A stretch of DNA of 58,510 nucleotides from Folioceros fuciformis (lineage: Eukaryota). The notes beneath the pieces are model-generated. The model saw nothing but the letters and a program-made list of their open reading frames with translations, was not told the DNA's origin and did not search any database. The number at the start of each line of letters is the position of its first letter. The stretch's first letter is position 1. Made by a program: the position numbers and the translations under genes. Location of the stretch: NCBI GenBank assembly GCA_049999805.1, contig JBNGIO010006249.1, forward strand, positions 137,079 through 195,588, read 5' to 3'. Positions 8,101 to 50,559 of this stretch are shown piece by piece.

Positions 8101-11100
8101 CCAGGTCTGATTCTGACAGAGGGTGGTGTGTCTGGTCAGCTCTTCTCAGACGTCCCTACAGAAATTACAACTGTCACCAGGCTGGTTTCAGACGAACTGG
8201 CAAGTATCCCCAAGATTGTAACTACGACGAAGGTTGCATTAGGTCCTATGTCAGCGGAGGCTGGTTCAGAAGACGCTCAAGAACAGGATACTATCGAGGT
8301 GCAGGCCGTCGCCAGCGCCGATGTACACGAGTGTTCGACCGAGACGCAGGGTGCAAAGGAAGGCGTGAAGGGAGATTTGCAACTAGAGGCTGCTGTCGAA
8401 GTGCAGACTGTCACCAGGGCCGATCCACAGGTAAAGAACGGTGAAAAGGAAGCTTCTTCGAGTGTGGTTGTAGAGGACACTCTGTCAGGAGGGCTCCAAG
8501 AAGAGGTTGTTACCCAGGTGAACAGTATCACCTGTTCCAACCCCGACTTGTCACTTTCCTGCAAGAACACTACACAGAGCGCTCTTTCAGGTGTAATCCT
8601 TGAAGACAATGGTTCAGCAGATCTCCTAGAGGTGGCTGTTACTGAGGTGAATATCGTCACCAGGGCCGACTCAGAGGACTTGTCATGTCCTCCCGAGATG
8701 GAGCTTTTTCAGAAAACTCTTGCAGGTGTAATGTCTGAGGAGGACATTGTTACAGGAGGCGTCTCAGAAGAAGGTGCTTTCGAGAAAAGAACTGCACGCC
8801 GGCTCGACGAAGATGAGGTGGCACTCTCAATCGGGAAGGATCCTGTCAGTTGTGCAGTGGCTACGCAGGCGTCGTGTTGCGAAGACCAGGATCTGGGTTT
8901 GAATTCTGAAGGCCAGATTGTCTTATCAGACAAATCAGCGACCGAGACAGTGCACGCATGTGCCTTTTGCGGATCACGAACAGTGGGAGCCAAGACGGAC
9001 AAGACTGATAGCCGGGAGGAATTTTCAGAGTCTCTGTCTGAGAAGACGGTGCAGACGGCAATTGACATGATGTACGTCTTGGCTGGGGTGCCGGTTGGCG
9101 AAGATGTGCTTCTAGGGGCACTGGCTGAGGAGAGCCCGCAAAAAAGCGCTTGCAGCCAGGGTGTGCTATCAACGTTACCATTCGAAGAGAAATTGCTAGC
9201 ACCTGCTGTCAGCCAGGATCGGCCTTCAGGTTCTCTAGCAGAAGAGAAACCGCTATCTAGCTCTCTAAGCCTGGATCTGTCACCATTGAAGGATACAAAG
9301 CAAACACACTCTGACAGCTTTTCGCTGTCAACTTCCCCAGACGACGGGCCTGCACAAGATACAAGTCTGAACCTGAATATCTGTAGATTATCAGGCCACG
9401 AGCCATCGACATTGGAAGCAGATGAACAGGGCGTGCTCTTAAGCTTAGCACGCGAAGAGGCTATGCAAAGGATTCCTGTGGTGGACCATATGGTTGACAA
9501 TGGTGATCTGGAAGAACTGGTCTGCGATTATGGGAGGTTTTCAACGGATCCCTCTGATTTTGTGTTTCCTAAGGATCGCATGTCTGTGGGACCCGTCGAC
9601 TCCCGGACAGAGAAGACTCCATTGTTCATCCAAACGCTGCCGGATAGTTGCGATTGGGAAGGGATATCGGTGCCTGATCCAGCCAAAGCAAGTGGTGATG
9701 AAGCCGCAGCAAGTGGACTCAAGAATGATCTGGACCTTGAACACGTTGCTGGTACAGATGGAGACTCCAAAGTTTTGAACGACGATGACACTGGCCCCCT
9801 GGTAATGTCGTCCACTGAGGTTCGAGAAAGTTGCAGTGTGAGACACCAGACTTCACCAACAGGGGAGGGTGCTCGGATTATTGCTGACGAGGGTGTTGCG
9901 GACAGAATTACAGGATCGCATACTTTTTCTGAGGGGGCAAACTGCGAAGCTGTGGTTGACCGAAAGGCTGAGCCGAGCTCTCCACGTGGACGAGAGATCT
10001 CCCAACCTCACATTGTCAGAGGTGAAGAGGACAGCTCCAGATCGGTTGGAGGGCTGTCTCCGCCTGAACAGGAGATTTCGCTTGTCTTTGCTGTCACTGA
10101 TGTTCGGTGGGACTCTGTGTCTGAACAGAGAACTGCTGTTAATGACAGAGTTGCCGGGTCTCATTGTGCGTCCGAAGTGGAGGTTCCCGACGTTGTGGTC
10201 GAGCGATCTGAATTGCCAGCTGGACAGCAACCAGCTCTTGTTGGGGTCATTGCAGCATTCCACGACTTCTCGGACAGTATAGGCCAAGAGAAAGATTTAG
10301 CGGAGCTGGAGCGTTGTGACAGGAATGATTGTGCTGCATTGTTAGTCATTTCAAATGTTTGCACTTCGTCATCGGTTTCGGGAAATTTCACAGAGGTCGC
10401 AGGTTACAGCAGTGAGGAGGAAAGAACTTTGGCCCAGGGCGACAGATCACACCCCTTGGCCAATACATGTGAGGTAATTCTTGGAGGCGTTCGCTCGCCT
10501 GTCAAGTCAGAGAGCGGAACCCCGAACTCGGATGCAGTGCAACATGCCAGGGCCCCTGTCGCGGCAGGCATAAGCGCTAATGTTCGAGATTCGGACGAAT
10601 CTCTTTGCCAGGAGCCGCCTTCATTCTCTATTGAGGGTGTGGACGCTCTTGTAGAACTGGCTGAGAGTACTCACGTTGCTGAGAACAGATCTAATGCACC
10701 GGGCAGGGAAATAGAGTTCGCTGCTACCCAAATTGTGGCGTTTTCTACGCAGTTGGATCAAGCGAATGAGGTGCCACTGGATGACGATGTGTGCCAACTT
10801 GGCACAGAGGGAGACAATCTGGGTAGAAGAACTTCATACTCAACCAGATCTTTGTTTGTCGACGGTGAGGACGCACCTGCAGCGGAAAGCGTTGGGGAGT
10901 CAAATTCTGTGGAATCACAGGAACTTGGTTCGTGTGAGCATGTCCTATCAATCGCAACCGACAGTGATAGATGCACAGCATGGCTCGGGAATGAAAGTGT
11001 TGCCTCTGGGACAGATGCTGCTGGTGCCGTTCTCGTGCCTTCTTCAGTGGAGATGCCGCAGGTAGTTGAGTCCCAGTTGGACGAGGAATTCTCTTCGAAG

Positions 11101-14100
11101 ACGGTTATCCCTGCTGGCGACAGAGTTTCATCAGTGAGCAGCACGGAGGATAATTGGCTTCCAGCCGTACTGGAAGTTACGTCACTGGCGGCAGAGGCGT
11201 TGGAGGCGTCACAGCCCACTGATTCCCCACCCGGTGAACTTTATATGGTCGTTGTGCAGGGAAGCATTGAACAGGGCCTGAAGGGCCTTGAGGAGACGGG
11301 TTACGTGTCTGACATTCCGCAGCTATTGGAAGCCAAGGAGCTGGAAGGGCATGGCGTTCAAGGAAGAAACCGGGGGTGTAAAGTCGACGAGAGTCAGCCC
11401 TATTATGACTGTGTCAGTGTATTCGACTCCTGCAGTGGGCTCTTGTCTAGCGTCAGCTGCTCAAGAAAGTACTCAGTATATGGCAGCCCCAGTGTCCAGG
11501 AATCTGTTGAAAGCCGGAGATTGGGATCACCCATGCACACTGATTCACCAGTGTTCACCAGGTGGGAGACTGCAAACTGTGGTAAGGAAAGGGAAAATGA
11601 AGAACCAGGTAACGAGTGTTCCATCCAGACCCCAGATAAGGATTCTTCCACCCAGACCCCAGATAACGGTATGGAGTCAGATGGCTCCCCTGAACTGCTA
11701 TCCACCGTCGCTGAAGAGCTACAAGAGGAAACACTTGCTGTAGAACTGGCGTCACCATTTCCGATGCCGACGCAGAGTGACTCTCCTAAGTTCTCTCGAG
11801 ACCCTTTGAATCTGGGGACTGTCAGTGGGACTGTCTTCAGCCCTCAAACTCGGCCCACTTCGAAGTCTCCTTTAAGCCTCATTCCCTCCAACGTCGCTGC
11901 GTCTTCCTACCTTAAGTCGAATGCTGGGCTTCAGTCACTTACCGACGATAATAGCCTTCAGAGCTGGTGTGCAGGAGGTGTGGAAAGTGATGGTGCGCTG
12001 TCGGCTGTGGATGAGGTTTCACCCTTCAAGAAGGAGTTTGAGAATGGTGGTTCGTCCAAGAAGAGACGGTCAGCAAGTAAGAGTCCGGGTTTGCTCCAGA
12101 GATCTCTACAAGTGCAGAAGACTCCGTTGTCACCAATGGATAGACTCTGGCCGTCTCTTTCTCCCAGAGAACGGCTTGCTGCAAGTCTTCACCGGGGAGC
12201 AGAGATATTGGAGAGAAGCAACACACCTTCTCCAGTCAGGCGGTCTTGTACTGTCAGCTTTGCTTTCCAAGGACAGGAGACAAGAATGAAAAAGGCTGTC
12301 ATGGTGGACGTGGGTGTACAGACATCGCCTGTGAAGGAGCTTATTGCAGCTACAGATGTTTCGGAGCTTGCTGACGGAGCTATAGTTGTTGAGCCTGTGG
12401 CTCTCGCTACCCCAAAAACAGAAGCTGTGAGCACTGATTTGGTCTATACTTCCGTTCAAACTTCTCCGGGTGCGTCTGAAAGTGAAGATCCTCAAGCCTC
12501 GTCGATGATTGATTCATCTCAATGGCAGATGGTGGCCATACAGGAGTCACCCACTCCAGTCAAACACGACCAGAAACCCCAGGTCCCGCTGAGCAAGGTA
12601 CCTTTTACAGTATTCCTGTACAAAACTTGCTGTGGCATTCCAATTTTGGGCAGACACTGACTACCTCCTTCAGGCTGTTGAAGCTGTTCTGGCAGGATCA
12701 ATCAGAAGGGAAACTGTGGCCGAAGAGAAAGTTAGAAAGCAAGCTGCTGAAATCGAGCAACTTAACCGACTGGTAACCCATCGGCTCAAGCCTGATGCCC
12801 GCAGGTATCTGTTTTTTCATGTGTAGCAGTTTGAGCTCATTTTTTTTTTTTTGCTTTGCTGGCAGGTCCGGCAATATAAGCATGAACGTGAGTGCAATGC
12901 TATCCTTCAGCAAAGTCGGGAGGACAAGATAGCTAGGCTGGAGAGCCTTATGGACGGGGTCCTGCCATCTGATGCTTTCGCGGATCAGGAATGGAGATCA
13001 TTAAATCATGATTATCAGGTGCTTACACCTTCACACAAACCTAGTGTTCTCCTACACCGAACCTGTAGATACTTCAAGCTGAATCTCGTCGTGTTTTGTG
13101 GGTATCAGATTTTGTTGGACAAGTATGACAATCATCCCGAAGTCACACTTTCAACAATTGAGCAACAAAGAATTCTGGAGGAACTCCGAGAGTATCGTGA
13201 TTTCTTTGACTTGGGTGAGAAGGAGGATATGCAAAAGGAAATCAGGCAGCTGCGCAAGCAGCTCCAGTCGTTTCTGGAGTCTGGTCCACCAAGACCAGTT
13301 GATAGTCGCCGACGGTCTATGATGCTGCAATCGATATCTTTGCGGCAATCCATGTCCCTAAGGCAATCTATGTCCCTGCAAGGCTCGATTGCAGAACCCA
13401 ACGCATTGGTTATGTGTGGAGATCCTAAACGGTTTGATGGAGCAAAGATGTCTGACGTATTGACCATGGTCGTCTCTGAAGACCAGTACGAAGAGGACGA
13501 CAAAAAGACTGTGCCCGAGCAGAAGGATGATGGGCAGGGGAGCAGCCTTTTCAAAGATATCGACAGTTTGGAAGAAGCCAGAAAGGAGTGGGAAGAACGA
13601 GAGAACGACTGGATAGCCGTTTTGGAAGAGCTGCGTCTGGAGGCTGATTCGTACAGACGTCAAGCTGAGATGAGAACGCATGAGCTAGAATGTGAAAGGA
13701 GGTGCTCAGACGAAGTGAGAGAGGCCTTGCAGATGGCCATGGAGGGGCATGCTCGCCTTCTGGATCAATACGCAGAGCTTCAGGAAAAGCACATCTCCAT
13801 ATTGGCTAAGCATCGCAAGATTCGGGACGGGGCCGCGGACGTGAAGAAGATGGCCAAACGAGCTGGCGTGACCCAATTGGAGTCGAAATGGCTAGAAACA
13901 CAATCCTTGAGGTTCGCAGCTATGGAGGCAGACCATGAGGAGGAAAAGCAGACAATGAGAGAGGAGATGGAGGGCCTGAGGGCTCAGCTCCGAGATACTG
14001 CCGATGCAGTCCAAGCCGCAGGGGAGCTCCTGGTTCGGTTAAAGGAAGCAGAAGAAGCCGTCTGCATAGCACAGGTTCGCAACGGTTTCGTGCCATTGGT

Positions 14101-14637
14101 GTGATGTGTCATTTGTTCGTGTAAGTTTTATAGATTGGGGACTGATCAATTGTGTTGTTTTCTCTACTTCAGGATGCCTCGTTACTTGCAGAGCAGGATG
14201 TGGACGCCCTGCAGAGAGAGCTGGAGAAGGTCAAGAGGAAGCATGGGACAGAAATGGCGACGATGCAACAGCGTCTGCTGGAAGCCAGGTTGCAGAGATC
14301 CCAAGTTTGTCAAATGTGTGTCATGGCAGAGCGTGTGAAATTCGAGTTCACTGAAGTAGACGAGGCGACGGCACAGGAAGAGATGCAAGCAGAGCAAAGG
14401 GCAGCAGCTTTAGAGGCTAACCGGCAGGCAGCATCCAGAGACTCCACCGTGAGGGGTCAATCGCCCATCCAGCCCACTATAAGTGATGACTGGGATTACC
14501 AGTCCCCACCAAGAGAATATGACCCAGCTTCCGAGCCCCAGTACAACTACTATCTGAATGACTACGAGAAGAGATGGCCTGAGAACCCGAGCGGGCCACA
14601 GGAGGTCGACTTCTTCTCTGGGGATTTGAAATACTGA
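5164..14637 (+). CDS. Kinesin-12 family motor (PAKRP/KIN12A-B-like), multi-exon, including a ~4.9 kb exon (~7729-12597)
   Basis: Spliced motor motifs [61 protein letters not shown] and [13 protein letters not shown] are present. Kinesin-12 tail motifs ([60 protein letters not shown]) follow. Introns are GT-AG. Confidence 0.95.
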
Positions 14638-16364: not shown

Positions 16365-18075
16365 CTAGATGCTCTTGAATACATCCCTGGCAGTAGCAAG
16401 CGTGAACTTAACATCTTCATCCGTGTGGGCGAGGCTGGTGAAGCCCGCCTCATATTGGGAAGGAGCAAGGTAAACCCCCCTTTCCAGCATGCCTCGGTGG
16501 AACTTGGCGAACTTAGCAGTGTCACTCTTCTTAGCATCCTCGAAGCAGTAGACAGGTCCTTCAGTGAAGAAGAGCCCAAACATGCCGCTGATGTGTCCTC
16601 CGCACACGGCATGCCCGGCCTCCCTCGCAGCCTGCAGCAGCCCTTGAATCAGCTTCTTGGTGATCTCATCCAGATAAGCATACGTTCCAGGCTGCTTCAA
16701 TCTCTGCAGTGTCTTGATCCCAGCAGTCATAGCCAGAGGGTTCCCACTCAACGTCCCTGCCTGGTACATGGGCCCGGCAGGAGCCACCAGCTCCATGATA
16801 TCCCGCCGTCCGCCATAAGCTCCCACCGGCAGCCCACCTCCGATGATTTTCCCCAAGGTGGTGACATCCGGTGTTACCCCGAAGTACTCCTGGGCTCCCC
16901 CGTACGCGATCCTGAATCCAGTCATGACCTCATCAAAGACCAGCAGAGCTCCTTCCTCCTTGGTCACCTCCCTCAGCCCCTGCAGAAACTCCAGCTTGGG
17001 GACGATGAACCCTGCATTGCCCACCACCGGCTCGAGAATGACGGCAGCAACCTGACCCTTGTTTTGGGCGAAGAGCTCCTTCACGGCATCCAGGTCGTTG
17101 TAGGCAGCAGTCAGTGTATTCTCTGTCGCAGTCTTGGGCACTCCGGGCGAGTCCGGAAGGCCCAGAGTGGCCACTCCACTCCCAGCTTTCACCAGGAAGG
17201 CATCTGCGTGGCCATGGTAGCAGCCCTCAAACTTGATGATCTTCTCACGCTTCGTGTATGCCCGAACCAGACGGAGCATCCCCATACATGCCTCCGTCCC
17301 AGAGTTGACGAAGCGTACCATCTCCACACTGGGTACAGCCTCGATCACTAGCTCCGCCAGCTGGTTCTCCAGAACACAGGGGGCCCCGAAGCTGGTGCCC
17401 TTTTGCAAGGCTTCCACCAGAGCTGCGTTCACCTGCAGGATTTGCCCGTCACAAGCTGAGGTCAACCTGCCACAGGGAGACGAGAAGAAGGAGAAGCCTC
17501 TTTCTGTGTGTCTCTACGTACCTTGTCATCTGCGTGGCCGATGATGGAAGGGCCCCATGTCCCGACATAGTCCACATACTCGTTGCCATCGATGTCCCAG
17601 GCGTGGGAGCCCTTCACTCTGTCGAAGACAATGGGCTGTCCTCCTACAGACTTGAAGGCTCTCACAGGAGAGTTCACACCTCCGGGCATCAACTCCTGCC
17701 ACAGCAAGTCAACGTTTTAGACAACAAGCACAGGGAGAGATCGTGCCCAGCACATTGCACTCTGGAATGCTTGGCTCAAGAAATCGCAAATGAGCTGAGC
17801 TCATATGGGCTCAGAAACAACACTTTCAGCATGGGAAGGCAGGGAAGAAGACTGAGCAGTGGGTGAATGGATACCTTGGCAGCCTGGAAAATCTCCTCGG
17901 ATTTTTGCGTCACAAACTTCTTCTCCACCGACACCGCCATGCGGATCCCGGCTACTCTGCTGGGCCGCGCTCGCGTGCCGCCAGGCCTGCTAGTAGGTGC
18001 ATCCGCCTGCTTCAGCCCGCACCATTCCGCCTGCAGTGCTTGTGCTGCCAACCCGCGACCCGCCATGGCAGCCAT
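16365..18075 (-). CDS. GSA: Glutamate-1-semialdehyde 2,1-aminomutase, chloroplastic; exons 18075-17875, 17695-17522, 17432-16365
   Basis: Transit-peptide-like N-terminus; motifs [40 protein letters not shown] (PLP lysine) and [11 protein letters not shown]; canonical splice sites. Confidence 0.98.
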
Positions 18076-18386: not shown

Positions 18387-20669
18387 TCACTGCCTGAAGC
18401 CTGTCTCCTTCAGGAAGTCAGACAACTGTTTGAGCGATCTGTACAGGGCTGCTTGTTGCGGATGCCTGTGATCTCCGACCACAAAAGTGTGCACCTCCTG
18501 GTCGATTACTATCCAGGTCTGGCCAGGAGATTTACATGCACCTGCACTCTTTCTCAGGTTTTCTACTTTTCCAGCACACTCCCACAGGCCAGCTTGGGCG
18601 TAGAGGTTTGACATCATTACATAAGCTGCAGGGTGTGCTGAGTCTAAGTGGACACAGGCCTGGAATGCTTGCTCTCCCAGTGACACATTGCCGTGCTTTC
18701 GACATGCATTTAGGAGACACAACCAGAGTGATGAATCAGGCTGCATTGGCATTTGGGCAAGAAGGTCCGTTGCCTTGCTGAAGAGTCCTGCACGGCTAAC
18801 AAGGTCGAGGACGTAAGAGAAGTGCTCCAGCTCTGGAGGGATGTTGTGGTCGGTTGACATGCTTTCAAAGAACGCAAGCCCTTGCTCCACCATCCCAGCT
18901 TGGCTGTATGCAGAGAGGAGCGCAAGACATGTGACTCTGTCGGGTTGGATGCCTGTCAGACACATGTTCTTGTAGCATTGGATGCTGGCCTCGCATTCTC
19001 CTGATTGGGCATAGCCAGCAATGAGGGCAGTCCATGCCACGACGTCGGGATTCTCCATTGAGGTGAAAACATTGCGCGCATCCACCATGCTCCCACATCT
19101 ACTGTAGGCCCGGAGTAAGCTTGTTGCCACGAACAGGCTGCACTCATGTTCAGTTTGCAGGATGGTTTGGTGCACATGCACACAGACTTCCAAGGCTCCT
19201 GTTGTGCCGCATGCTTCGAGGACAGAAACGTATGTTGTGTCATCCGCTCGCAGTCCTGCAGCTTGCATCCTGGCATATAGTTGCAGGGCCTTCTCACCAC
19301 CCTGGTCCTGCTGTGAGTATGCAGCGATCATGCAAGCCCACGACACCTGACTGCGCTGGGGAACGCTCTCAAACACCTGTTCCGCATCTCTGATGCTGCC
19401 GCACTTGACGTACAGGCTGACCAAAGAGCTATTAACAAACATGTTCTTGTCGAATCCCAGCTTTGCAGCTTCTGAATGGATTTTCCTTACCTTGTGCAGT
19501 GACCCTACCTTGACGTGTCGTCCATCCAAAAGCGAAGTTGGCTCATTTGTAGCAACCGTCACACATGCTTGGAGTGCACTCACAAAGACCATTCCATCTG
19601 GCCTGACCCCAACATCATTCATCTGCTGATACACATGCAACGCCTTGTCGCCTTGATTTTGCAGAGTGTATGCACCCATGACTGCAGTCCATGACACCAC
19701 GTCACGTTTAACCAAACCATTGAACAGCTCTTCTGCATCATTGATGCTGCCACACTTTGAATACATACTCAGTAATGAATTAGCAACAACTGTTTGTGAT
19801 CCAAACCCACTCACGGTAGCGGCAGCATGTAGTTCTTTCCCCTTCTGAAGAGACTCAATTTTGACATAATGCCCATCCAGCAGGGCACTCTCCTCCTTGT
19901 CTGCAAGCGAGCCACAGGCTTGAACAGCGCTTGCGAATGTCCAGGCATCTGGCCTCCCCACTTCCTCCAGCATTGCCCTGAAGATTTGCAGAGCTTTCTC
20001 TCCATGCTCCTGTTGAGAATACGCAGCGAGAATTGCGTTCCATGACACAACATCACGCTTAGACAATCCATCAAACACGTGTTGTGCATCCAAAATACTC
20101 CCACACTTCGCATACATGCTCACCAAAGTGCTCCCGACGAACGCATCTGAGTCAAGCCCATGCTTCCGACATTGAGCATGAATCCGCTTGCCTTCTTGCA
20201 GGTTACACAACCTACTGCATACCTTCAGCAAGCTGACAAACGTGTAGCTATTGGGTTGAACTCCTTCCTGTTGCATCTGCTCATAGCTTAAGAGAGCCTC
20301 CCGATATCGTCCAGAGTCACTGTACCCTGAAATGACGGCTGTCCAAGAGAGAACACTTCGGTGCGATATCCTTTGAAACACGTCCAGACCCTCGGCGACG
20401 CTCCCACAGGTGATCAGAGTAGTAACCACAAGGTCGCCCAAGCTTTCGTGCGATTCCAGACCATGCCTCTTCAAATGAGAAAGCACCCGCTTGGCCTCAG
20501 GGTGGGCCTTCTTCCTGATGCAGGCCTGCAAGAGGTGCTTGCAAGTGCGCACTGAAGGGACAGAACCCTGCTGATCCAAGTGTTGCAGGACGACGAGGGC
20601 CTTGTCCAGCCGTCCCTCCCTGCATAGCCTCTCAACATCCCTTGCAGTACAAGATGTTGCTAGTGTCCT
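18387..20669 (-). CDS. PLS-class pentatricopeptide repeat protein with E/E+ C-terminus and no DYW domain; 5' exon(s) probably upstream to ~21050
   Basis: Repeated MYAKCGS...A..VFD....DVVSW motifs; E/E+ region MPMQPD..LWLCLL.ACRKHGN...PGQTWI...HTFVVGD..HP; the frame extends upstream to a CAG acceptor near 20670. Confidence 0.95.
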   Translation of the reverse strand, partial: RTLATSCTARDVERLCREGRLDKALVVLQHLDQQGSVPSVRTCKHLLQACIRKKAHPEAKRVLSHLKRHGLESHESLGDLVVTTLITCGSVAEGLDVFQRISHRSVLSWTAVISGYSDSGRYREALLSYEQMQQEGVQPNSYTFVSLLKVCSRLCNLQEGKRIHAQCRKHGLDSDAFVGSTLVSMYAKCGSILDAQHVFDGLSKRDVVSWNAILAAYSQQEHGEKALQIFRAMLEEVGRPDAWTFASAVQACGSLADKEESALLDGHYVKIESLQKGKELHAAATVSGFGSQTVVANSLLSMYSKCGSINDAEELFNGLVKRDVVSWTAVMGAYTLQNQGDKALHVYQQMNDVGVRPDGMVFVSALQACVTVATNEPTSLLDGRHVKVGSLHKVRKIHSEAAKLGFDKNMFVNSSLVSLYVKCGSIRDAEQVFESVPQRSQVSWACMIAAYSQQDQGGEKALQLYARMQAAGLRADDTTYVSVLEACGTTGALEVCVHVHQTILQTEHECSLFVATSLLRAYSRCGSMVDARNVFTSMENPDVVAWTALIAGYAQSGECEASIQCYKNMCLTGIQPDRVTCLALLSAYSQAGMVEQGLAFFESMSTDHNIPPELEHFSYVLDLVSRAGLFSKATDLLAQMPMQPDSSLWLCLLNACRKHGNVSLGEQAFQACVHLDSAHPAAYVMMSNLYAQAGLWECAGKVENLRKSAGACKSPGQTWIVIDQEVHTFVVGDHRHPQQAALYRSLKQLSDFLKETGFRQ

Positions 20670-21909
20670 GCTGGAAGCAACATGATGAGTGAGCCCTCCG
20701 TAAGGACCATAATCCTTCCAGCCATATCCGACAGGGTTTTCTCACTCACCGCTCCTTGTCCCAACTTCCAAATGCAGGGCCGGCGGCTTGATTGCATTGC
20801 AGAGACAAAACGACGCTCTTCCGCCTGACGTGAAGGTTCAGTGGACTTGTCTGCTGGCAACAGAAGAAAGCTGCAGGCCACACAGTTGCCTGCATCTCTC
20901 AGAGGCGTCAAATGTGGGAACGCAAAGTGAGGATTTAAACGTTCATCCTTCAGCAGCCACCTCATTTTTCCACCACAGCATGGTTTCCGATGCGAGACTT
21001 GCATTAGAGGGACAGGATGACAAGCGACGGTCTGACCTAAGATCCATGAGCTTCACGAGAACCCTGCCTGTGAATTCCAGCCAGCAGCCCGATATCAGGG
21101 TTTGACACTGCAGGAATGGAGAGGCAGCCACAGACTAATGGCAGGCCGGAAAGAGGCCCAACCAGTCAAGGCAGACCCTGACACACACGGTATCATTCAA
21201 CAAGGACGGCCAAAGACGGACAACTTCACTCAGCAACCAGGTTGCACACTCGAGGACCAAAGGAGATGCAATCCAGCTTCATAGGCTCAAAACAAATCGC
21301 TTAACATTGCAGTATCTTGAAGATCTCTCGAGAAAACAAGAGGCTGTTTCATTGCGCCTGACGCCAAATAATTTTTGGGCACCTAAGGATGGTCCACACC
21401 GGCTTCAACATTGGAAGCAAATTGAGTTCAATAATCGGCGGTCTTATAACTTTGACGGATTCCCTTCCTCGCTGAACACCTTCTTCTGTCATATAACACT
21501 TAGCTTCCTTAGCCTACGTCCTGAGTTGGCGTTTGCTGTCTATCCATCAACAATGCGGGGAAGGAGGCCGGGGCTCGCAGCGTGAGGCTTGCAGAAGCCG
21601 CGGCTTGTCGTTTTCAAGTTTCCACGTGCCGTATCTGCTTCCACTTGCCGACGACGCAGGAAGGCAAGGGCCGCCTTCAAGGTCTGTCTCTCACCCTCTC
21701 GATCAAACGCGGAACAACAGTGAGGGATAACAAAAAAGATCCGTACACGGTGCTCAACGCGAGCAGCTAATGCTATGCCGAATGCAACCACAAAAGTTCC
21801 AATTTGCTGATCAGTAGCACTGCAGGCCTCTAGCACTCGTCGCCCTGAATGCACCGAATCTCCACTGTCTCTGCTGCGGCCTCACCAGCTTGCTACCCCT
21901 GCTACCCCT

Positions 21910-23554
21910 CTACTCCCCTTCCACGTACAGACCACGAATGAGGTTGATTGCCCGCGATGTCCACAAGCTACATTCCTCCTCGTTCCACATCCACACCTCG
22001 TCTTCCAGGCGCAAACCCCTTCGCCTGCAATACAGGCACACCGCCGTCAAGGCCCTATGCAATCGGTATGCATCACGTAGATAGTCGGTGCACTGCAGGC
22101 TGGAACGATAGGCTCTGTCCCTCGCGTCTTCCAACTCCTGCGCAGACAAGTCTTAAGTCAAGCTATGCGACACAAACATTGACATATTCACCTCTCACAC
22201 TCGATTTGCCGTACCCCGGTGAGCAATGAAACCCTGTGCAAGTTCGGCTCTTCCGGAACATTGTTCCTTTCAAACTGTGGTCCCCGAGTCCTGTACTCAC
22301 CACCGTCGTCGTCATGCACACTGTGGGAATATGGCTCGACCAAACCTGCAGGTTGCTCCACTTCGTCGAAGTCCATTGCCCAAATGTGGTCCCTGTTTGC
22401 TGATATCCTTTCTCTCCTACTCTGCAAATTCCAAATGCGAATGAATCTTGCAAGCTCCTTCCTCATAGTCGGCATGAACGCTGCATGCAAAGAATGGACA
22501 TGCCATGGATTCCTTGTGTCCAGCTCGTTGCTCTCTTGTAAATCTTGCATATGGCCCTTGTACAGAAACCCCCACCTCTCTTTGAGTAACCTCCAGATCA
22601 TCTGCAGCATACCAACACACTCGTGCCCAGCGGCTTATCATCATCTACAAGTTTCCACGGTTTGCAACTTCTGCCTCCCCAACACACCTCACTTGCCTAC
22701 ACAACGGGAAGCTCCATTTCCTTGTCACGTTAGTACTTTCCTCCTTACCTCATTCTGCACGGCCCCCTGATGACGTTGCTCCATGGTCTCGGCCTGACGA
22801 AGTCTGCCTCCACCAGGTTGTACTCGGTTGCAAAGTTAGGCTGGATGCGCTGAGGGTGACCAAACCTGTGCATGGTCCCTAGGTAAGCATTATAAATCGT
22901 CTCTGCACTCTTGTTGTCCGATAGCACCACCCACGTCACGTAGTGGGTGGTGCTATCCATGGCTACATGTACCCACATATTGAACATATTCATCTCCTCG
23001 TAGGCTGCAGCCGGAGCCACGGTCAGCGACCATCTATCAGCTCAAACTCTCATTCTTGCACGCAATAGCCATTATCATTGGCACTCACATTCCATGTGCC
23101 ACATCACCCGTCGTCTTGTACGCATTGCCATTGCATCCGGTTGCAAGGCATGCAAGGCAGCCGAGATTTTCCGCCTTGGCACGATGAACCCCGCATCGAG
23201 CAATGCAGCCTTCACGAATTCCACCCCCCATGTCACCCCATGCCTGGTGATGGGAATGTGCTCTAGTACGAGGGAAGCCACTGCCTCCACCGTCAACTGC
23301 TGCCCAGCATATGCACCAGTCCACCCTGGACAAGCGGGTAGCCATCTCCTCAACGTCCTTGCTGAACAGCCGAGCTCTGTAGCCAAGTCCTTCATTGTCC
23401 TTCTGGCTTGCCTTGTCCCCAAAGCAATTTCTTGCAATGTGGCCAAAGGGAGTGGGCATCCTTGCCGTCGATGCCTCCTCTCCCCTCCCCACTCACCCTC
23501 CACACTCTCTTCATTGGACTCCACCGATTCCTCCGCTCCTATCAAGGGCTCCAT
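21910..23554 (-). mobile_element. Decayed, intron-containing DDE transposase gene related to the IS3/IS481 integrase core (IS3EU-like)
   Basis: N-terminal HTH (TMKDLATELGCSARTLRRWL), then WHME|SYEEMNMFNMWVHVAMDS..LSDNKSAETI..FGHPQRIQPNFATEY..VQNE|MIWRLL..LHAAFMPTMRKELARFIRIWN. This follows the recalled consensus WHxDG..IHGxIDG..NNxAxTV..YGxPxRVRSDxGxEN..SVHNQRIERLW..LHYVFLP....L..F...WN. Predicted introns 23088-23005 and 22748-22602; frameshift near 22765. Confidence 0.7.
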
Positions 23555-23956
23555 TTTATTCCTCCCTCTCCCTCTCCCTCTCCCTCCCACGACACACTCC
23601 TTCCCCTCTGCCGTACGCAACCTCCGCACCGCCCCCCCGCTATCGTCGCGCGTACTTTGGCAGCCAACGACCCACCCTCGCTCTCGTGGTTGTCTTGACG
23701 GCTACGAGCTGCTGCACAATGGATGGGATGCAGCGCTGTGCTCGGGTCCGGGTACTTGAGTCTCGCGCCTGCTAGCATTTGTGTGCGCGTTCCGTTCATT
23801 CCAATCAGAGATTCGGAAATTTCCATCCCATTTTGTGAGCACTATCGTTGGCCTGCGATCCCAACTGCCCCCCCCTTCGACTGGGGGGAAGTGTCCCGAC
23901 AACTGTCGTTTGGCCGACTGTCGGAATTTGTGCTTTACAGTTCTTGTTTTCCACTA

Positions 23957-24028
23957 CAGCCCGAGCTTGCTGGTCAGCCCGAGCTTGCTGGTCAGCCCGA
24001 GTTTGCTGGATAGCCCGAGCTTGCTGGT
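23957..24028. repeat. 18-bp tandem repeat, about 4 copies (cagcccgagcttgctggt)
   Basis: Directly visible in the sequence. Confidence 0.9.
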
Positions 24029-24548
24029 TCGCAATGTGAGTCTATGAGAAGACGGGTACACGTCCCTGGCTCCTAGCAACGGGAGAACTGGTGAAGGACA
24101 GGTATCCATCTCCACACGCAGGTGCGCTACTCCATCGCCGTGGTCTAACCATCAAGAGCTCGCGATCGGGAGCGTGGTCAGTGAAAATGCGTGACTGGTA
24201 CGCAACTGTGCAGGGCAGACCGGACTCTGCATCCAGCACGAGGTAAACTCGAAGGCTTGCACTGGCACCAATCTGCGGATACTGCTAGTTGCTCTAGCCA
24301 AACTGTCACATCAATCGCACTCCCAACAGCTTCTACGAACGGTCAGAAGAGTACGTGTGTGTGGAGTTGGGCTGTAGGATTTGAAATTCTTGTGGAGTTT
24401 CGGTTTGAAGTGATGCAAGAAGTGTGGAATATATGGATATCTCGAAAATCATCTGCTTTCCAGGAGATGGTGTCAGCTCTGCCCCGGCTCCGATAACTAT
24501 GTTCCCTCTCGTGTAGGGCCATATAGTTTTGCCGTGTTTGCAGACTTC

Positions 24549-27500
24549 TCACCAATCAGATTCTTCCTCATCCAGATGAGCACTTAGCTCTCGGAGCAAT
24601 GCATTTACGTCTAGGTGTTGGTGCCTGTGGTCGCTTGCAAGGAAAGTATGCACCTGCTGGTCATGCTCAATCCAGGACTGGCCAGGCAGTTTCCAAGCAC
24701 CTACATCTTGTCTCAACTCGTCAATTTCGTTTGCCTTGTCCCACATGCTCGCTTGAGCATAAATGTTTGCCATGAGCAGGTAAGGCGCGGCTTGTTGTGG
24801 CTGTAGCGCCATAGCACCATCAAAAGCGCGCCTCCCCAGTACCACATTACCGTGTTTTCGGCAGGCACTCAGCAGACACAACCAAACAGACAGATCGGGC
24901 TGCATTGGCATTTGCGAGAGCAAACACTCTGCCTCGTCGAACAATCCTGCACGTCCGACGAGATCAATCATACAAGCATAATGCTCCTGCTCTGCAAGGA
25001 TGCTGTGGTCTCTGGTCATTTTGGAGAAGTACTCGAGTCCTTTCTCCACCATGCCAGCATGACTGCATGCCGACAGAAGTGCAAGGAAGGTGACCCCGTC
25101 TGGTTCCACACCGGCGACACGCATGTCCTCGAATAGCTTCGTGCTCAGTTGTAAACAACCTGACCGTGCATACCCAGCAATGAGTGCAGTCCATGATGCC
25201 ACATCGGGCTGCGAGACTGAATCAAAAACACGCTGAGCATCTACCATGCTTCCACACTTGCTGTAGGCGTGTATCAGGCTGCACGTCACAGGGGGACTAC
25301 GAAGGAGTCCATTTGCGGCGATACTCTTATGCGCCTGCACGCACATAGCGAGGGCTCCTCTCCTGCTGCACTGATCCAAGACACAGCGAAATGTAGCCTC
25401 GTCCCCCTGCACACCTTGTGCTTCCATCTGGGAGTACAGTTGCAGGGCCTTGTCTCCATGCTGTAGCTGAGAATAAGCTGCCATTAGGGCAGTCCATGGC
25501 ACCACGTTGCCCTGAGGAAGGGTGCTGAAGACCTGTTCAGCATCCTTGATACTCCCGCACCTTGCATAGAAGCCCACCAGCGTGCTACCTACATACACAT
25601 CCGTTTCCAGACCATGTCTGGATACTGAAACATGTACCTCTCTCCCCTTCAGCAGCGATCTGGCCTTTACGTTCTGCCCCTCCATCAGTGAACTCTTCTC
25701 ATTTTCTGCCAGAGTGCAACATGCTTGGATAGCGCTTACAAAGGTGCGTGCATTTGGCCTCACACCCTCTTCTTGCATCTGCCAGAAAACATGCAACGCG
25801 ATCTCTCCTTGGTCGTGTTGGGTGTATGCAGCAAGCATCACATTCCATGATACTACATCACGATGGGGAAGTGTAGTAAACACATGCTGCGCATCACCAA
25901 TGCTCCCACACCTTGCATACATACTCAACAAGTTGTTACCAACAAACACATCTGCTTCAAAACCACTCCTCCCAGCTACAGCCCCAGCATGAACTTCCTT
26001 ACCCTTTCGCAGGGACTCCACCATGATATGCTGACCCTCCACCTCCACACTATCCTCCATATCTGCCATGCTGCTACAAGCTTGGACGGCACTCACAAAC
26101 GTTCGAGCATCTGGCTTCAACCCCTCTGTTTGCATCTGCTGATAAAGCTGCAGGGCCCTCTCTCCTTGGTTTTGCTGAGCATATGCTGCAACCATCGCTG
26201 TCCATGACACCACGTCGCGCTGGGACAAGCTGTCGAACACGTGCTTGGCATCCAAGATGTTCCCACACTTTGCATACATGCTCACCAGAGAGTTGGCCAC
26301 AAACACGTCAGACTCAAATGACTGGCACGTCGCTGCAGCGTGTATCTCCTTCCCCTTCTGCAACGACTCCACCTTGACATTTTGACCGTCGAGCAAAACA
26401 CCTTCCTCCTTCTCCGCAAGAGTGGAGCAGGCTTGGAGAATGCTGACGAAGGTGTGCCCATTTGGCCTCACACCTTCCTCGACTTGCATTCTCCTGTACA
26501 TGTGCAAGGCCTTCTCTCCTTGGTCCAGCTGGGCATATGCTGAAATCATGGCGGTCCATGATACCACATCAGGCTTGGACAATGTGAAGAACACCTGCTC
26601 CGCAGCCCAGATGCTCCCACACTTGGCATACAAGGTAACCAAGGCGTTACCCACATAGGTGTGTGACTCCAGTCCCATAACAGCAACTGTAGCATGGATT
26701 TCCTTCCCTTGCCACAGCGCCTCTCTCTTGACATTCTGCGCATCCGCAAGCGAAGTCGGCTTCTCCTTTTCCGCAAGATTCCCACATGCTTGCAGAGCGC
26801 TGACAAAGGTCCAGGCATCTTGCGTCACACCTTCCTCCTGCATGCGCCAATACATTTGCAACGCCTTCTCTCCTTCATTATGTCGAGCATAAGCAGAGAG
26901 CATGGCATTCCATGACACTCCATCACGCTCCGACAACGTGTCAAAAACGTGCTGCGCATCCACGATGCTGCCACACTTTGCATACATGCTGACCAAACTG
27001 CTCCCCACGAAAACATCTTCTCCAAATCCATGTGCCACAGCAGCAGCATGAATCCGCTTCGCCTCGTCCAGGTCTCGCAACCTGCTGCACGCTTTCAGCA
27101 AGCTCACAAACGTGTACTTGTTAGGCTGAACCCTGTCCAGCAACATACGCTCATAGCACCCCAATGCCTCCTTACAAAGCCCAGCATCGCTGTACCCTGT
27201 GATAATGGCAGTCCAGGAATAAACGCTCCGCCGACTCAAGTTGTGAAACAGGTTCAGCCCATCTCCAAGGCCCCCACAGTTCACGAGCGTGCTCACTGCA
27301 AGGTCACCCAAAATTGTGTCGCAGCCCAACAACCCATGTCTCACCAAATGAGCCTGCACCCATCTTGCATCATCTAAAGCTTTCTTCTTACTGCACGCCT
27401 GCAGCAGGTGCTTATAGAGGTGCACCGAAGGAAGATGGCTGCCATGCTCGTCCACGCGTCGCAGAGCAACGATAACCTTGTCCAGCCGTCCATCCTTACA

Positions 27501-27896: not shown

Positions 27897-30566
27897 TCAG
27901 GAATCCAGGAGGAATCTGGAGAACCAGGCTCCGATATTGGCGAAGCTCTCAAAATCCGACTGGGGCTTATCGATGGCATGGCAATCCTCAGGAAACACGA
28001 TGGTCTTCACCTCCAAACCCCGCTGCCTGAGCGCGTGCACATATTGGAACCCAGTAGACACAGGAACGCGCCGATCTTGAGCGCCTAGCACGAACAGTGT
28101 GGGCACCTTCACGCTCCCCACGTGTGCGATGGGGGAAACCTGGTAGAACCGCGCCAGATCCTTGTCACTCGGAGCATCCGTGTATCCATCCTTCCCTTTC
28201 CTTCCCACAGCCTCCACAAAACACCAATCCGGAATATCCGTAATCCCCACCATGGACGACAGATTCGTCGCGGGATTTCTCACCGCAGCGGTGCGGAACA
28301 ACTCCGGAGCCTGCCCAATCAGATGCGTGGCCAAAAACCCACCATGCGAGCCGCCCAGAACCGCCACCAGCCCGGGATCCGCTAGACCCAGGCCCACGAC
28401 CTGCTGCAGCGCCACCAACACGTCGTCCACGTCCTGCCGCCCGGCCTTCCCCGGCAGGGACTGCAGTGCCGCCTCCCCAAACCCGAGTGACCCCCTGTAG
28501 TTCACGTGCAGCAGGTTGAACCCCAGCCCAGACAGAAATGCAGACGTCCTGGAGAATCCCGTAGTAGAGACCGAATGCGGCCCTCCATGCAGCACTAGAA
28601 TCAAAGGTCTCGGCCCCGCCTTCCCCTTCCTGTCCTCCCGCTCCCTCTCCTCCTCCAGATCCCTCTCCACAAAAATCGACTCCCCAGCTCCTCCCGGAAG
28701 CTGCAGGATTCGGAAGGAGATGGAGCTCAGCGTCTTCTCCACAACCTCCTCCACCGAGAGCTGAGGCGCTGACACATCAATCCACTGCCATTTCCCCTTC
28801 TCCTCTTCCCCATCTTCCCCTCTGAACCCTAACTTCAGCACCGGAGGGGAAGCCGGCGAGCTCGCCGCAGCAATCACCCACTGCCGGTGCACCCCCAGCA
28901 GGCTCCAAGACCATGTAGAATCCCCCGGGCTGATCCTCTCCACCTCCCCAGACTCCACGTCCACCGCCAGGATCACTTGCGTGCTCCGCCACGGCGACGA
29001 CAGCACGAGAAGATGAGACGCCTTGGTGCTGCGAGACGTCTCAAGCCAGGGCCTGGCAACAAACCCAAGACAGTAAAGTCCAGGAAATGCGCCTTCTTCA
29101 CTTTCTTGTACCACCGGAACCAGCACTCTCGCCTTGGATCTGGCCTTCCCGTCCTCGGGGGCCACGGGGGGCCATGCCAAGGAGTGGAGTGATGTACTGG
29201 AACAATGAACGCCGGTATCCACCGCGCTCTGCGCACTCAAGAAGCATAGACTGCTTCCATCCGGGGTGAAGGAGGGTGAGAATGCGCTAGACAGCGAGTC
29301 TGTAAGGCGCACTAAGCCCACATCAACATCATTATGCTCTGCTTCCGCTGCGTTTCCTTCTGCTTCAGCCTCATCGTCTGCCTCAACCTGCACCTTAGGG
29401 GCCCGGATGGTGTACAACGCACATGGCCTGTTGTAGCAATATTTCATGCCCAGCTGCCTTGGCGTGTTGAAATTGGTGGATTCCCGGGGCCAGCCGACGA
29501 AGACGAGCGATTCCTCGACGTCTTGTGCGTGGCCAGCGCGCGGAGCCCAGACCACCTGCCCAACCGAAAGGTCGGCCGGGATGCCAGGCACCTCGCGGAC
29601 ATGGCCCGACCCGATGGATGCGACGAAAAGCGCAGGGCGGCGCTTGCCGGTGTAGGATTCCCCCCAATCTTCCGTCCAGTCGCCCTGGCCTTTCCATGCG
29701 CCCGGGTCGGTCTCGGCGCCCCCTCCGAAAACCGGACGCGGCACGGAGGATGCCGGACCTTCAGCTATGTAGGCGACGCGGTCCTCCTGCGGGCTCCATG
29801 CCACGCCCTCGAACCAGCCGTCGGTGTAAACAGAACCATGCAGGGCGGCGCCCACCGGTAGGTCCTGCAGCAGGCGGCCGCGACCCCAAATCTCCAGTGT
29901 GGTAGTGGTCGCCGACCCCTGGTCTTCCGGCTTCCGGACCACAAGCAGCTTGGTGCCGGACGGGGACGGCGCCAGTAGCGAGGCGCCGCAGAGTTCCACG
30001 GGGAACGGCGACCATCGCTGCTCCTGCGGGCGGGAGGCGGCGTCCGGGAGGAACACGCTGCTCACAAAGGTCCGCTTGACGTTGGCGCGGAGGTTTGGCT
30101 GGTTGAAGGAGACTAGGAGGTCGAGGCTCCCCGGCGCCCCCGCCGCCGTGCTCACCCAAGCCTTCTCCAGCAGCGGCACGTCGTACCACGGTTGCAGCTG
30201 CTCGGCCGCCTTCCCGAGCTCCCTGTCCGCCTTCCCCTTGCGCGTTGGCTTGCCTGGTGACATTTCCGCTCCTTGACTCCACACGCCCGCGGCTATGGCG
30301 GCCGTGGCGTTGGCGACAAACGGCATCTGGCTTCCCGGATCCCAATCTTCTTCCTCAAGGCAGACTCGCCTCCATTTCTGTCCACGTTCACCGAACTGGC
30401 CCGACTCGTGCGGTGAAACACGGAGGGAGAAAGTACGAGACGTCTCGTTTGGGTCTGCATCCGGGTCAGGAGTTTCCCCTCCTTGTCTCCTTTGCTGCTG
30501 TGGCCGTTGCCGTGGATGATGTCCTACTTCCTCTGCCGGCTGTTTCCCGTGTTCGTCGTTTGGCAT
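27897..30566 (-). CDS. AARE: Acylamino-acid-releasing enzyme (acylpeptide hydrolase, S9C), single exon; start codon uncertain
   Basis: Motifs LHGGPHS, VNYRGSLGFG, GGSHGGF (catalytic Ser), GAQDRRVP (Asp), DCHAID (His), EDWGE and LGMKYCYNRPCALY. Confidence 0.95.
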   Translation of the reverse strand: MPNDEHGKQPAEEVGHHPRQRPQQQRRQGGETPDPDADPNETSRTFSLRVSPHESGQFGERGQKWRRVCLEEEDWDPGSQMPFVANATAAIAAGVWSQGAEMSPGKPTRKGKADRELGKAAEQLQPWYDVPLLEKAWVSTAAGAPGSLDLLVSFNQPNLRANVKRTFVSSVFLPDAASRPQEQRWSPFPVELCGASLLAPSPSGTKLLVVRKPEDQGSATTTTLEIWGRGRLLQDLPVGAALHGSVYTDGWFEGVAWSPQEDRVAYIAEGPASSVPRPVFGGGAETDPGAWKGQGDWTEDWGESYTGKRRPALFVASIGSGHVREVPGIPADLSVGQVVWAPRAGHAQDVEESLVFVGWPRESTNFNTPRQLGMKYCYNRPCALYTIRAPKVQVEADDEAEAEGNAAEAEHNDVDVGLVRLTDSLSSAFSPSFTPDGSSLCFLSAQSAVDTGVHCSSTSLHSLAWPPVAPEDGKARSKARVLVPVVQESEEGAFPGLYCLGFVARPWLETSRSTKASHLLVLSSPWRSTQVILAVDVESGEVERISPGDSTWSWSLLGVHRQWVIAAASSPASPPVLKLGFRGEDGEEEKGKWQWIDVSAPQLSVEEVVEKTLSSISFRILQLPGGAGESIFVERDLEEEREREDRKGKAGPRPLILVLHGGPHSVSTTGFSRTSAFLSGLGFNLLHVNYRGSLGFGEAALQSLPGKAGRQDVDDVLVALQQVVGLGLADPGLVAVLGGSHGGFLATHLIGQAPELFRTAAVRNPATNLSSMVGITDIPDWCFVEAVGRKGKDGYTDAPSDKDLARFYQVSPIAHVGSVKVPTLFVLGAQDRRVPVSTGFQYVHALRQRGLEVKTIVFPEDCHAIDKPQSDFESFANIGAWFSRFLLDS

Positions 30567-30603
30567 CTTTTTGCCGTGTGCTTGCAGCGGGTGAGGGTTG
30601 GGG

Positions 30604-31263
30604 TTACATCCACTCGGGTGGCCGTCCTTCCTTCTTCTCGTTCACTTTGAATTCCATCTGCAGAGCGAGCGGCTGGGTAGGTGGGTGGATTCGAGTATGG
30701 CATTGTGTGATTGTGCTTTTGGTTTGATTCTGAAAGCCGCTCACCTCGGATAGAATCCTTCTAGCGTCCCAAAACACATCTTCCTCCACAACCTGGTCAC
30801 AGAGGGAGACGGACGAGAGCACGAACCGTCTTGATAGCGTGGAGTTTGCAGACCACGACTCTCACTCAAGGGAAGGAGTAATTCTCGCCTGACCTCAGAA
30901 TCTGGCGAAAGCGATGCTATCAAGGGCCTTAGATCAATGTCCTCGTCCTGCTCGTCAAGGATGTCATCCACAATCAGTGCCCCAACCTTCTGACAACGCC
31001 TTGATCGACACAGCAAAGCAAATAAACTTACATGGAAAAGGGGAAACTTGAAGGGCAGGGCGGCATCAAGCTCCTCTATGGTAGGCAGTTTACTGTCTCC
31101 GAAAATCATCGGGTGTGCAGCCTGCTAGAAATGGGAAGCATCGGTTTCGGATTTCATCACCTACATTAGGATGACGCAGACATGGGAAACCGAAGGCTAC
31201 CTCGAAAGAGTCGGCAACATCTAACTCATCCAGTTCCACGATTTCTTGAGTCTCTGTTGCCAT
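30604..31263 (-). CDS. IFT43: Intraflagellar transport protein 43-like, multi-exon
   Basis: Spliced product reads IVELDELDVADSFE|AAHP..KLPTIEELDAALP..|DEDIDLRPLIASLSPDSE|VVEEDVFWDARRILSE|MEFK. This resembles the recalled IFT43 C-terminal signature [32 protein letters not shown]. Confidence 0.75.
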
Positions 31264-50533: not shown

Positions 50534-50559
50534 GCTCTAAGAACTGCTTCCGAGGGGGA

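Follow-up and report, generated by a model that had tools for sequence, protein, structure and literature searches.

A probable GingerRoot/IS3EU-lineage transposase relic with spliceosomal introns in Folioceros fuciformis

We found, between two PPR genes of Folioceros fuciformis, a gene on the minus strand that reads as a helix-turn-helix (HTH) plus DDE-type integrase-core gene of the IS3EU lineage with spliceosomal introns. On balance, we lean towards regarding it as a transcribed relic that functions neither as a transposon nor, today, for the host. The DNA analyzed here, called the window, is 58,510 nt long (GCA_049999805.1, contig JBNGIO010006249.1, positions 137,079-195,588 of the forward strand), and all positions refer to it.

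Gene model and splicing

The locus and its two neighbors comprise the following features.

23554-21910, minus: gene-like series of open frames between two PPR genes
23554-23089, minus: coding part of exon 1, from the ATG at 23554; predicted acidic leader, HTH and linker, ending in WHME
23410-23339, minus: predicted helix-turn-helix, about residues 49-72 of the product (Pfam matches below cut-offs; alignment to relatives)
23092-23090, minus: Glu codon of exon 1 in place of the first catalytic Asp
23089, minus: T, the last base of exon 1, which opens a split Ser codon
23088-23005, minus: intron 1, 84 nt, GT..AG, phase 1, in the Ser codon (T/CC; X3 contig and spliced model)
23004-22749, minus: exon 2, predicted first half of the rva_4 integrase core (Pfam, library search, alignment)
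22837-22835, minus: Asn codon of exon 2 in place of the second catalytic Asp
22767-22763, minus: run of five G (G5) with a -1 frame change relative to the ancestral frame (NVIR/GAVQNE; comparison with L001)
22748-22602, minus: intron 2, 147 nt, GT..AG, after QNE of the ancestral frame (HNQ of relatives)
22601-22215, minus: exon 3, predicted second half of rva_4 in the ancestral frame, opening with MIWRLL
22600-22598, minus: premature TGA in the frame of the ATG at 23554, one codon past the exon 2/3 junction (241-codon ORF)
22214-22138, minus: intron 3, 77 nt, GT..AG
22137-21369, minus: exon 4, C-terminal tail (ancestral frame) and 3' untranslated sequence to at least 21369
21912-21910, minus: stop codon of the ancestral frame, in exon 4
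20741-18387, minus: downstream neighbor, 784-aa PPR protein with E motif
27557-24549, minus: upstream neighbor, 1002-aa PPR protein with E motif

The introns were placed using the end pieces, bin depths and length of one contig from X3, a run of the same organism from a different sample and study, whose RNA status was guessed from its record. This contig (record 20; 1808 nt, minus strand) is listed as two pieces, 23484-23089 and 22136-21369, the first stopping exactly at the exon 1 boundary (23089). Its genomic span is 2116 nt, meaning that 308 nt are skipped; the depth of 7.33-7.48 in four bins between the end pieces, compared with 9.61 for the contig, locates the skipped bases. In fact, the window spliced from 23484 with three introns (84 + 147 + 77 nt) is exactly 1808 nt long, equal to the contig. 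The start of exon 4 is ambiguous by one G, which fits before or after intron 3, and the X3 piece is listed from 22136. The 5' part of exon 1 (23554-23485) is without RNA cover from this contig.

We treated X3 as RNA because its contig is spliced and its depth is zero on the intergenic stretch 23678-24011, where the DNA runs X1 and X2 both have cover; if it were DNA, the same picture would arise from a processed copy located elsewhere in the genome. Three GT-AG introns are removed in this RNA-like contig. An earlier note on this DNA had predicted two such introns: the introns are real, as judged from the X3 contig, but they number three, intron 3 having been absent from that prediction.

Relatives and domain composition

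When exon 2 was searched with HMMER against a library of 1.84 billion representatives, 28 proteins were returned at E<=1e-3, the best with an E value of 2e-10 and none with more than 47% identity. Fourteen of these library proteins were scanned against Pfam: 11 were rva_4 proteins, and P0002, P0021 and P0022 were unrelated repeat proteins. Word-index protein searches (near matches for exons 1 and 2, and exon 3 with longer proteins) brought no close relative. The Atlas clusters nearest to the full-length relative P0028 were 100% rva_4 and eukaryotic (Chordata, Ascomycota and Basidiomycota). With a profile of a smaller alignment (A3), we additionally obtained one metagenome locus, L001, on a contig of 3468 nt (46% GC). 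It is intact (WHMD, RVRSD and RIEHFW), and its identity to the window is 29% in exon 1 (E 7e-12), 38% in exon 2 (E 2.5e-19) and 30% in exon 3 (E 7e-8). No inverted repeats of at least 16 nt and no element ends were found in L001. In the alignment, the rva_4 relatives share the same N-terminal region, and the product of the window gene aligns colinearly with P0028, P0014 and L001.

An HMM search against Pfam, as had been proposed in the earlier note, placed rva_4 (PF24764, 'Integrase core domain') on both core exons: positions 22-80 of 194 matched the exon 2 ORF (E 5.9e-5) and positions 109-180 the exon 3 ORF (E 7.9e-6; 26.1 bits, cut-off 26). In the exon 1 ORF (23554-23093), 11 HTH families matched at residues 47-72, all below their cut-offs, with HTH_23 the best (E 3.7e-4; 20.7 bits, cut-off 24.6). 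The same residues align with the N-terminal parts of L001, P0028 and P0023, and the Atlas clusters nearest to the N-terminal region carry HTH_SpdB_C or HTH_23. Since the rva_4 matches of exons 2 and 3 are colinear, the reading as an HTH plus integrase-core protein on the minus strand, put forward earlier, appears right. The fourth frame matched no Pfam family, exon 1 gave nothing at E<=10 among PDB sequences, and an Rfam scan of the whole window gave no match.

Furthermore, the family profile matches the catalytic core of HTLV-2 integrase (E 0.004), and P0028 matches an IS481 transposase model over residues 5-181 (E 5.7e-7, far below the model's cut-off). An RNase-H-like integrase fold, the kind of match on which the earlier note had let its assignment depend, is therefore supported at the sequence level.

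Assignment to the GingerRoot/IS3EU lineage

GingerRoot was described in 2019 in the clubmoss Selaginella lepidophylla and also in mosses (Cerbin et al. 2019, PMC6839031). Within plants, that paper reports it from bryophytes and lycophytes only, after searches of sequencing reads from 18 species of Bryopsida and 3 of Lycopodiopsida; the elements are given as 3.9-12.9 kb long with terminal inverted repeats (TIRs) of 100-150 bp, and 221-364 copies are given for S. lepidophylla. IS3EU and GingerRoot have since been united in one lineage, with a bootstrap of 99%, whose elements have TA..TA ends and 6-bp duplications (Kojima 2023, PMC10045372). A 2022 paper names eight superfamilies of plant DNA transposons, GingerRoot being one of them, and states that GingerRoot does not occur in the genomes of angiosperms analyzed to date (PMC9804982).

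The earlier note had taken this transposase type to belong mainly to animals and fungi and not to be standard in plants; this premise is out of date because GingerRoot has been reported from a clubmoss and mosses (PMC6839031) and joined with IS3EU (PMC10045372). The same literature means that the locus adds little as a transposon: GingerRoot of non-seed plants was published as early as 2019, and it is considered equivalent to IS3EU.

The Selaginella GingerRoot rows in the supplement of PMC10045372 print WHMDSYDKL and R-V-R-S-D-C-A-V-E-H-E. Compared by eye with these printed rows, the window (WHME-S-YEEM and R-I-Q-P-N-F-A-T-E-Y) follows the plant GingerRoot pattern, not the animal IDGFSR / G-T-E-N. 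One library protein, P0005, is by eye about 80% identical to the printed pieces of row SL_GR-005 of the same supplement, and its identity to exon 2 of the window is 33%. The locus is thus very probably a derivative of the GingerRoot/IS3EU lineage, as judged from its domains and motifs.

An intron shared with a distant relative

The first intron of L001 (90 nt) splits a Ser codon after its first base (T/CA), directly behind WHMD. Intron 1 of the window (T/CC, 84 nt) stands at the same codon position and in the same phase. Being common to both, it indicates that at least one intron predates the split between the two copies. Introns in the transposase gene, one of them common to the distant and intact L001, fit a long residence of the lineage in intron-bearing hosts, and the main text of the GingerRoot paper is silent on introns in the transposase gene (PMC6839031).

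L001 and P0014 have no break at the HNQ place, which corresponds to the site of intron 2. P0003, P0004, P0024 and P0027 read HNQV, whereupon similarity ends, as would be expected of library fragments if a GT intron follows. In addition, many library fragments begin 2-5 residues before the start of exon 2.

In a tree of exon 2 with 26 relatives, the window fell in a polytomy with P0003, P0004, P0024 and the L001 group, and its terminal branch was 1.63 against a median of 0.45 (3.6 times).

Catalytic residues and reading frame

Alignment with relatives agrees with the altered catalytic positions (WHME, IQPN) pointed out in the earlier note. At the first, relatives read (W/M/Y)H(I/M)D and the window WHME (Asp to Glu); at the second, relatives read R(V/I)R(S/A)D and the window RIQPN (Asp to Asn). 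The region of the catalytic Glu reads QNE/MIW here and HNQ/RIE-x-W-W in relatives, a shortening by 3 residues when counted with the conserved intron place as anchor, although another alignment would put the E of QNE there. Directly before the first catalytic motif, 12 residues are missing in the alignment with relatives (with X at the frame break). Both indels of the catalytic region (12 and 3 residues) are in frame.

Among the relatives, P0001 also has an Asp-to-Asn change. We weighed whether this marks a lineage conserved in an inactive state and decided against it, since Asp is retained in P0009, a close relative of P0001, and the change arose independently in P0007 and P0024.

A frameshift had been suspected near 22765 and could be placed in the G5 run at 22767-22763. 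The run is one G short of the ancestral frame; a sixth G restores NVIR-GAVQNE, matching FLRGSSVHNQ of L001. No indel is listed at 22767-22763 in X1, X2 or X3, and the length of the X3 contig fits five G, so the -1 shift is real and present in two samples. In fact, the two DNA runs and the RNA-like X3 match the window base for base. As a consequence of the shift, the spliced mRNA stops after 241 codons, which cover the predicted HTH and half of the core, and the premature stop stands upstream of two exon junctions. Beyond the shift, the ancestral frame is open for 233 codons, to its stop at 21912-21910.

Element ends, copy number and neighborhood

PPR-E genes adjoin the locus on both sides, in line with the position between PPR genes given in the earlier note. 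One of their ORFs starts 628 nt downstream of the transcript end and the other ends 995 nt upstream of the ATG, leaving a 3.8-kb interval that holds this gene alone and is smaller than the smallest intact GingerRoot reported (3,931 bp; PMC6839031). Other neighboring genes are predicted to encode an XB3/XBAT31-type RING protein and an O-methyltransferase with a dimerisation domain; together with the PPR-E genes, these predicted products fit a land-plant origin.

A repeat search of 19000-27000 gave no credible inverted-repeat pair. In a sensitive inverted search, the best match between 20742-21900 and 23300-24548 scored 20.2 bits, which 22 of 40 shuffles reached, and we found no TIR there, in agreement with the earlier note, which had identified none. 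No 6-bp target duplication is visible, and no termini were found that one could flank.

All 28 library hits match one place in the window (tblastn), and a single X1 contig bridges 18131-26827 with 0 differences. Over 21340-24345, no further contig of at least 85% likeness adds depth in X1 or X2, whereas the PPR stretches draw dozens. One copy was therefore seen at this likeness in the X1 and X2 contigs, which is weak evidence on copy number, as contigs show presence, not absence. In organism B, one 263-nt contig with 3 differences from the window was found. Of the plant DNA transposon proposed in the earlier note, the IS3EU-lineage transposase gene stands, but the working transposon does not: it has no ends and no catalytic triad, and one copy was seen.

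Relic or domesticated gene

What would best explain these observations is that a GingerRoot (IS3EU-lineage) transposase gene became immobilised between two PPR genes. It would have kept the layout of the family, namely an N-terminal HTH, a linker, the rva_4 core and a C-terminal tail, and lost what a transposase needs: the first Asp became Glu, the second Asp became Asn, the Glu region was shortened and 12 residues were deleted. The -1 shift in the G5 run would have left a truncated product of 241 codons. Such a locus would be neither self-moving nor movable, and its present state may be that of a pseudogene starting to decay or, at most, of a gene for a truncated HTH protein. What would be unusual about such a relic is its continued transcription and correct splicing.

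A domesticated GingerRoot transposase, kept by the host for a non-catalytic role (most plausibly DNA binding by the predicted HTH), is a possible but rather unlikely alternative. Its product would be the present 241-aa protein, predicted to bind DNA, or a full-length protein until a very recent single-base loss in the G run disabled the gene. In its favor, the ends and the catalytic residues are gone, yet the gene still has a promoter and three introns that are used correctly, and it is represented by an RNA contig; the one copy seen lies in a gene-dense stretch. Moreover, the reading frame is more open than expected: its 445 codons contain one frameshift and no stop, although the window agrees with only 9 of the 18 columns conserved in at least 75% of relatives (9 of 19 when X is counted as a mismatch; 68-100% for 15 relatives in a leave-one-out comparison) and has the long terminal branch described above. 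In neutral simulations (4000 per level), a frame stayed free of stops with a probability of 0.32 at 4% amino-acid divergence, 0.073 at 11%, 0.0045 at 20%, 0.00125 at 28% and 0.00025 at 35%, with 0/4000 at 47%; from 20% divergence upwards, this probability never exceeded 0.0045. Neutral decay would predict less open frames than those observed, which suggests past selection on the frame after catalysis was lost. If much of the divergence arose at this locus, it would mean selection for an open frame after the loss of catalysis, a signature of exaptation. The in-frame state of the other indels and the open ancestral frame past the shift also fit domestication.

Conversely, two samples carry the -1 frameshift, the resulting stop stands ahead of two exon junctions, and neither an orthologue nor a close relative appeared in the word-index searches or, above 47% identity, among the 1.84 billion representatives. 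Some of the divergence may have arisen in an active parent family that was not among the sampled sequences, and not at the locus. The locus was also picked in the earlier note for its open frames, which biases the no-stop argument.

Lost catalysis and ends, expression, splicing and open frames together form the usual signature of exaptation; the frameshift and the failure to find an orthologue keep that reading unproven. Were it true, which we consider rather unlikely, this would be the first domesticated GingerRoot/IS3EU transposase, having kept its HTH and scaffold under selection on the frame and shed catalysis and ends. We therefore describe the locus as a degenerate member of the GingerRoot/IS3EU lineage for which past or present domestication is possible.

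The G run might also be read as a place of programmed -1 frameshifting or slippage, comparable to that of bacterial IS3 elements, from which a short HTH protein and a full-length fusion would result. The required shift is indeed -1, within G5 a Gly-tRNA bound to GGG could slip back by one base and pair perfectly again, and the frame past the site is the open one. However, the zero frame lacks an X XXY YYZ heptamer. The 60 nt after the site have a folding energy of -14.6 kcal/mol (z -2.0 against mononucleotide shuffles), but 90 and 120 nt give z values of 0.1 and -0.3. In L001, P0014 and P0028 the frame continues unbroken at this place, so the family as a whole does not share the shift, and the fusion protein would still be without the DDE residues. 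We consider this reading very improbable.

Equally hard to credit is the reading that the locus is a piece of an ordinary LTR-retrotransposon integrase, or else a conserved gene of the host that resembles an integrase. The Pfam family rve does match exon 2 weakly (E 0.012; 16.3 bits, cut-off 32.6), and the family profile touches retroviral integrase cores. Nevertheless, rva_4 outscores rve on exon 2, and rve has no match on exon 3. The N-terminus has HTH matches and no zinc-finger family (none at E<=1 in the exon ORFs), and this N-terminal region is shared by the relatives, which are themselves rva_4 proteins. The PPR genes abut, with no space for gag or pol between them. The LTR-retrotransposon integrase that the earlier note had named as the outcome against its own reading was thus not what we found.

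A working or recently working transposon, with ends beyond the searched region (intact GingerRoot elements, at the size and TIR length reported in PMC6839031, could have ends far off) or with lesions that are assembly errors, is the least credible reading, as the PPR ORFs leave 3.8 kb in which no inverted repeat was found, the two DNA runs and the RNA-like run agree with the window, and Asp-to-Glu and Asp-to-Asn are substitutions, not homopolymer errors.

Comparison with known systems

FHY3/FAR1, MUSTANG, DAYSLEEPER and ALP1 are domesticated transposases of plants with an origin in Mutator, hAT or PIF/Harbinger elements; their orthologues are conserved and their frames intact. The window gene resembles them in having lost ends and catalytic residues, in the one copy seen, in its host-like expression and in its retained (predicted) DNA-binding domain. 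Unlike them, it has a broken frame, and no orthologue was found. In the passages on GingerRoot consulted in papers that also speak of domestication, we met no domesticated GingerRoot gene.

With prokaryotic IS481 and IS3, the gene shares a predicted HTH and an RNase-H-like DDE core. The likeness to orfA/orfB of IS3, in that a -1 change parts the HTH from the second half of the core, is superficial: the window gene is eukaryotic with spliceosomal introns, and its frame change is not common to its relatives. With IS3EU of Repbase, it shares the Pfam core family and the (predicted) N-terminal HTH. The TA..TA ends that define IS3EU were not found at the window gene, and where the window and plant GingerRoot have (I/M)D-x-x-(S/T)-H and A-x-E-(H/Y), the printed IS3EU rows of animals and fungi show IDGFSR and G-x-E-N.

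Compared with GingerRoot (PMC6839031), whose 100-150 bp TIRs end in TA..TA or TG..CA, the window gene has no TIRs that we could find, its catalytic D, D and E are lost, and one copy was seen in place of the 221-364 of S. lepidophylla. Its transcription and splicing contrast with the heading 'Dearth of Expression' of a section in the GingerRoot paper, whose main text mentions introns only for captured gene fragments, not for the transposase gene. What the two share is a plant host, the apparent absence of an HHCC zinc finger and an integrase-related DDE core with motifs of the (W)HMD-SYDKL and R-V-R-S-D-x-A-x-E-H type.

The degenerate transposase relic of the GingerRoot/IS3EU lineage lies between two PPR genes, and the window also contains the following frames:

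7696–12660, plus strand: open frame of 1654 codons with a high content of Ser, Glu, Asp and Val
12827–14104, plus strand: next frame after it, 425 codons, without family
16365–17513, minus strand: class-III aminotransferase frame
27897–30641, minus strand: acylamino-acid-releasing enzyme/S9 peptidase, 914 codons (APEH_N, E = 1.7e-94; Peptidase_S9, E = 1.3e-32)
49760–50536, minus strand: O-methyltransferase frame with dimerisation domain
53016–53816, minus strand: XB3/XBAT31-type RING frame

The aminotransferase, O-methyltransferase and RING frames are ordinary plant genes, which supports a plant origin of the window. The 1654-codon frame matched no Pfam family at E ≤ 1e-5; it resembles a very large disordered exon from an unknown plant gene. 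The S9 peptidase frame is uninterrupted, a notable length of single frame for such a gene, and GC content is locally high within it (0.62 at 28001–30000).

In the upstream PPR gene, summed contig depth at 26684–27017 reached approximately 2260 in X1 (a DNA run) and 2175 in X3 (a run treated as RNA, from a second sample of the same organism), whereas depth near this segment was 8–30. This peak marks the segment as a motif present in very many PPR paralogues of the organism.

On the 5′ side of the relic, a repeat search found an 18-nt unit in about five tandem copies (23939–24028; family D6), and a GGGAGA-type repeat lies immediately 5′ of the ATG, within 23554–23600. Read mapping also revealed apparent read cuts at 23554–23595. 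These upstream repeats and cuts may be why the 1808-nt spliced contig from X3 starts no earlier than 23484.

In X4, a run labelled as another organism, a 263-nt contig matched window positions 22368–22630 with three differences and extended 29 nt into intron 2 of the relic, indicating that a very close relative also carries this locus.

A more distant comparison is provided by L001, a 3468-nt metagenome contig, in which no inverted repeats were found across its length. Its GingerRoot-type gene (732–2444) is apparently intact, with WHMD, RVRSD and RIEHFW all present; it contains intron 1 of the relic and lacks intron 2. In an alignment of relatives (A2), the change of the second catalytic Asp to Asn seen in the relic also occurred in three further proteins (P0001, P0007 and P0024), whereas Asp was retained in P0009, a close kin of P0001. 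This contrast indicates that the same inactivating change has arisen independently and repeatedly in decaying copies.
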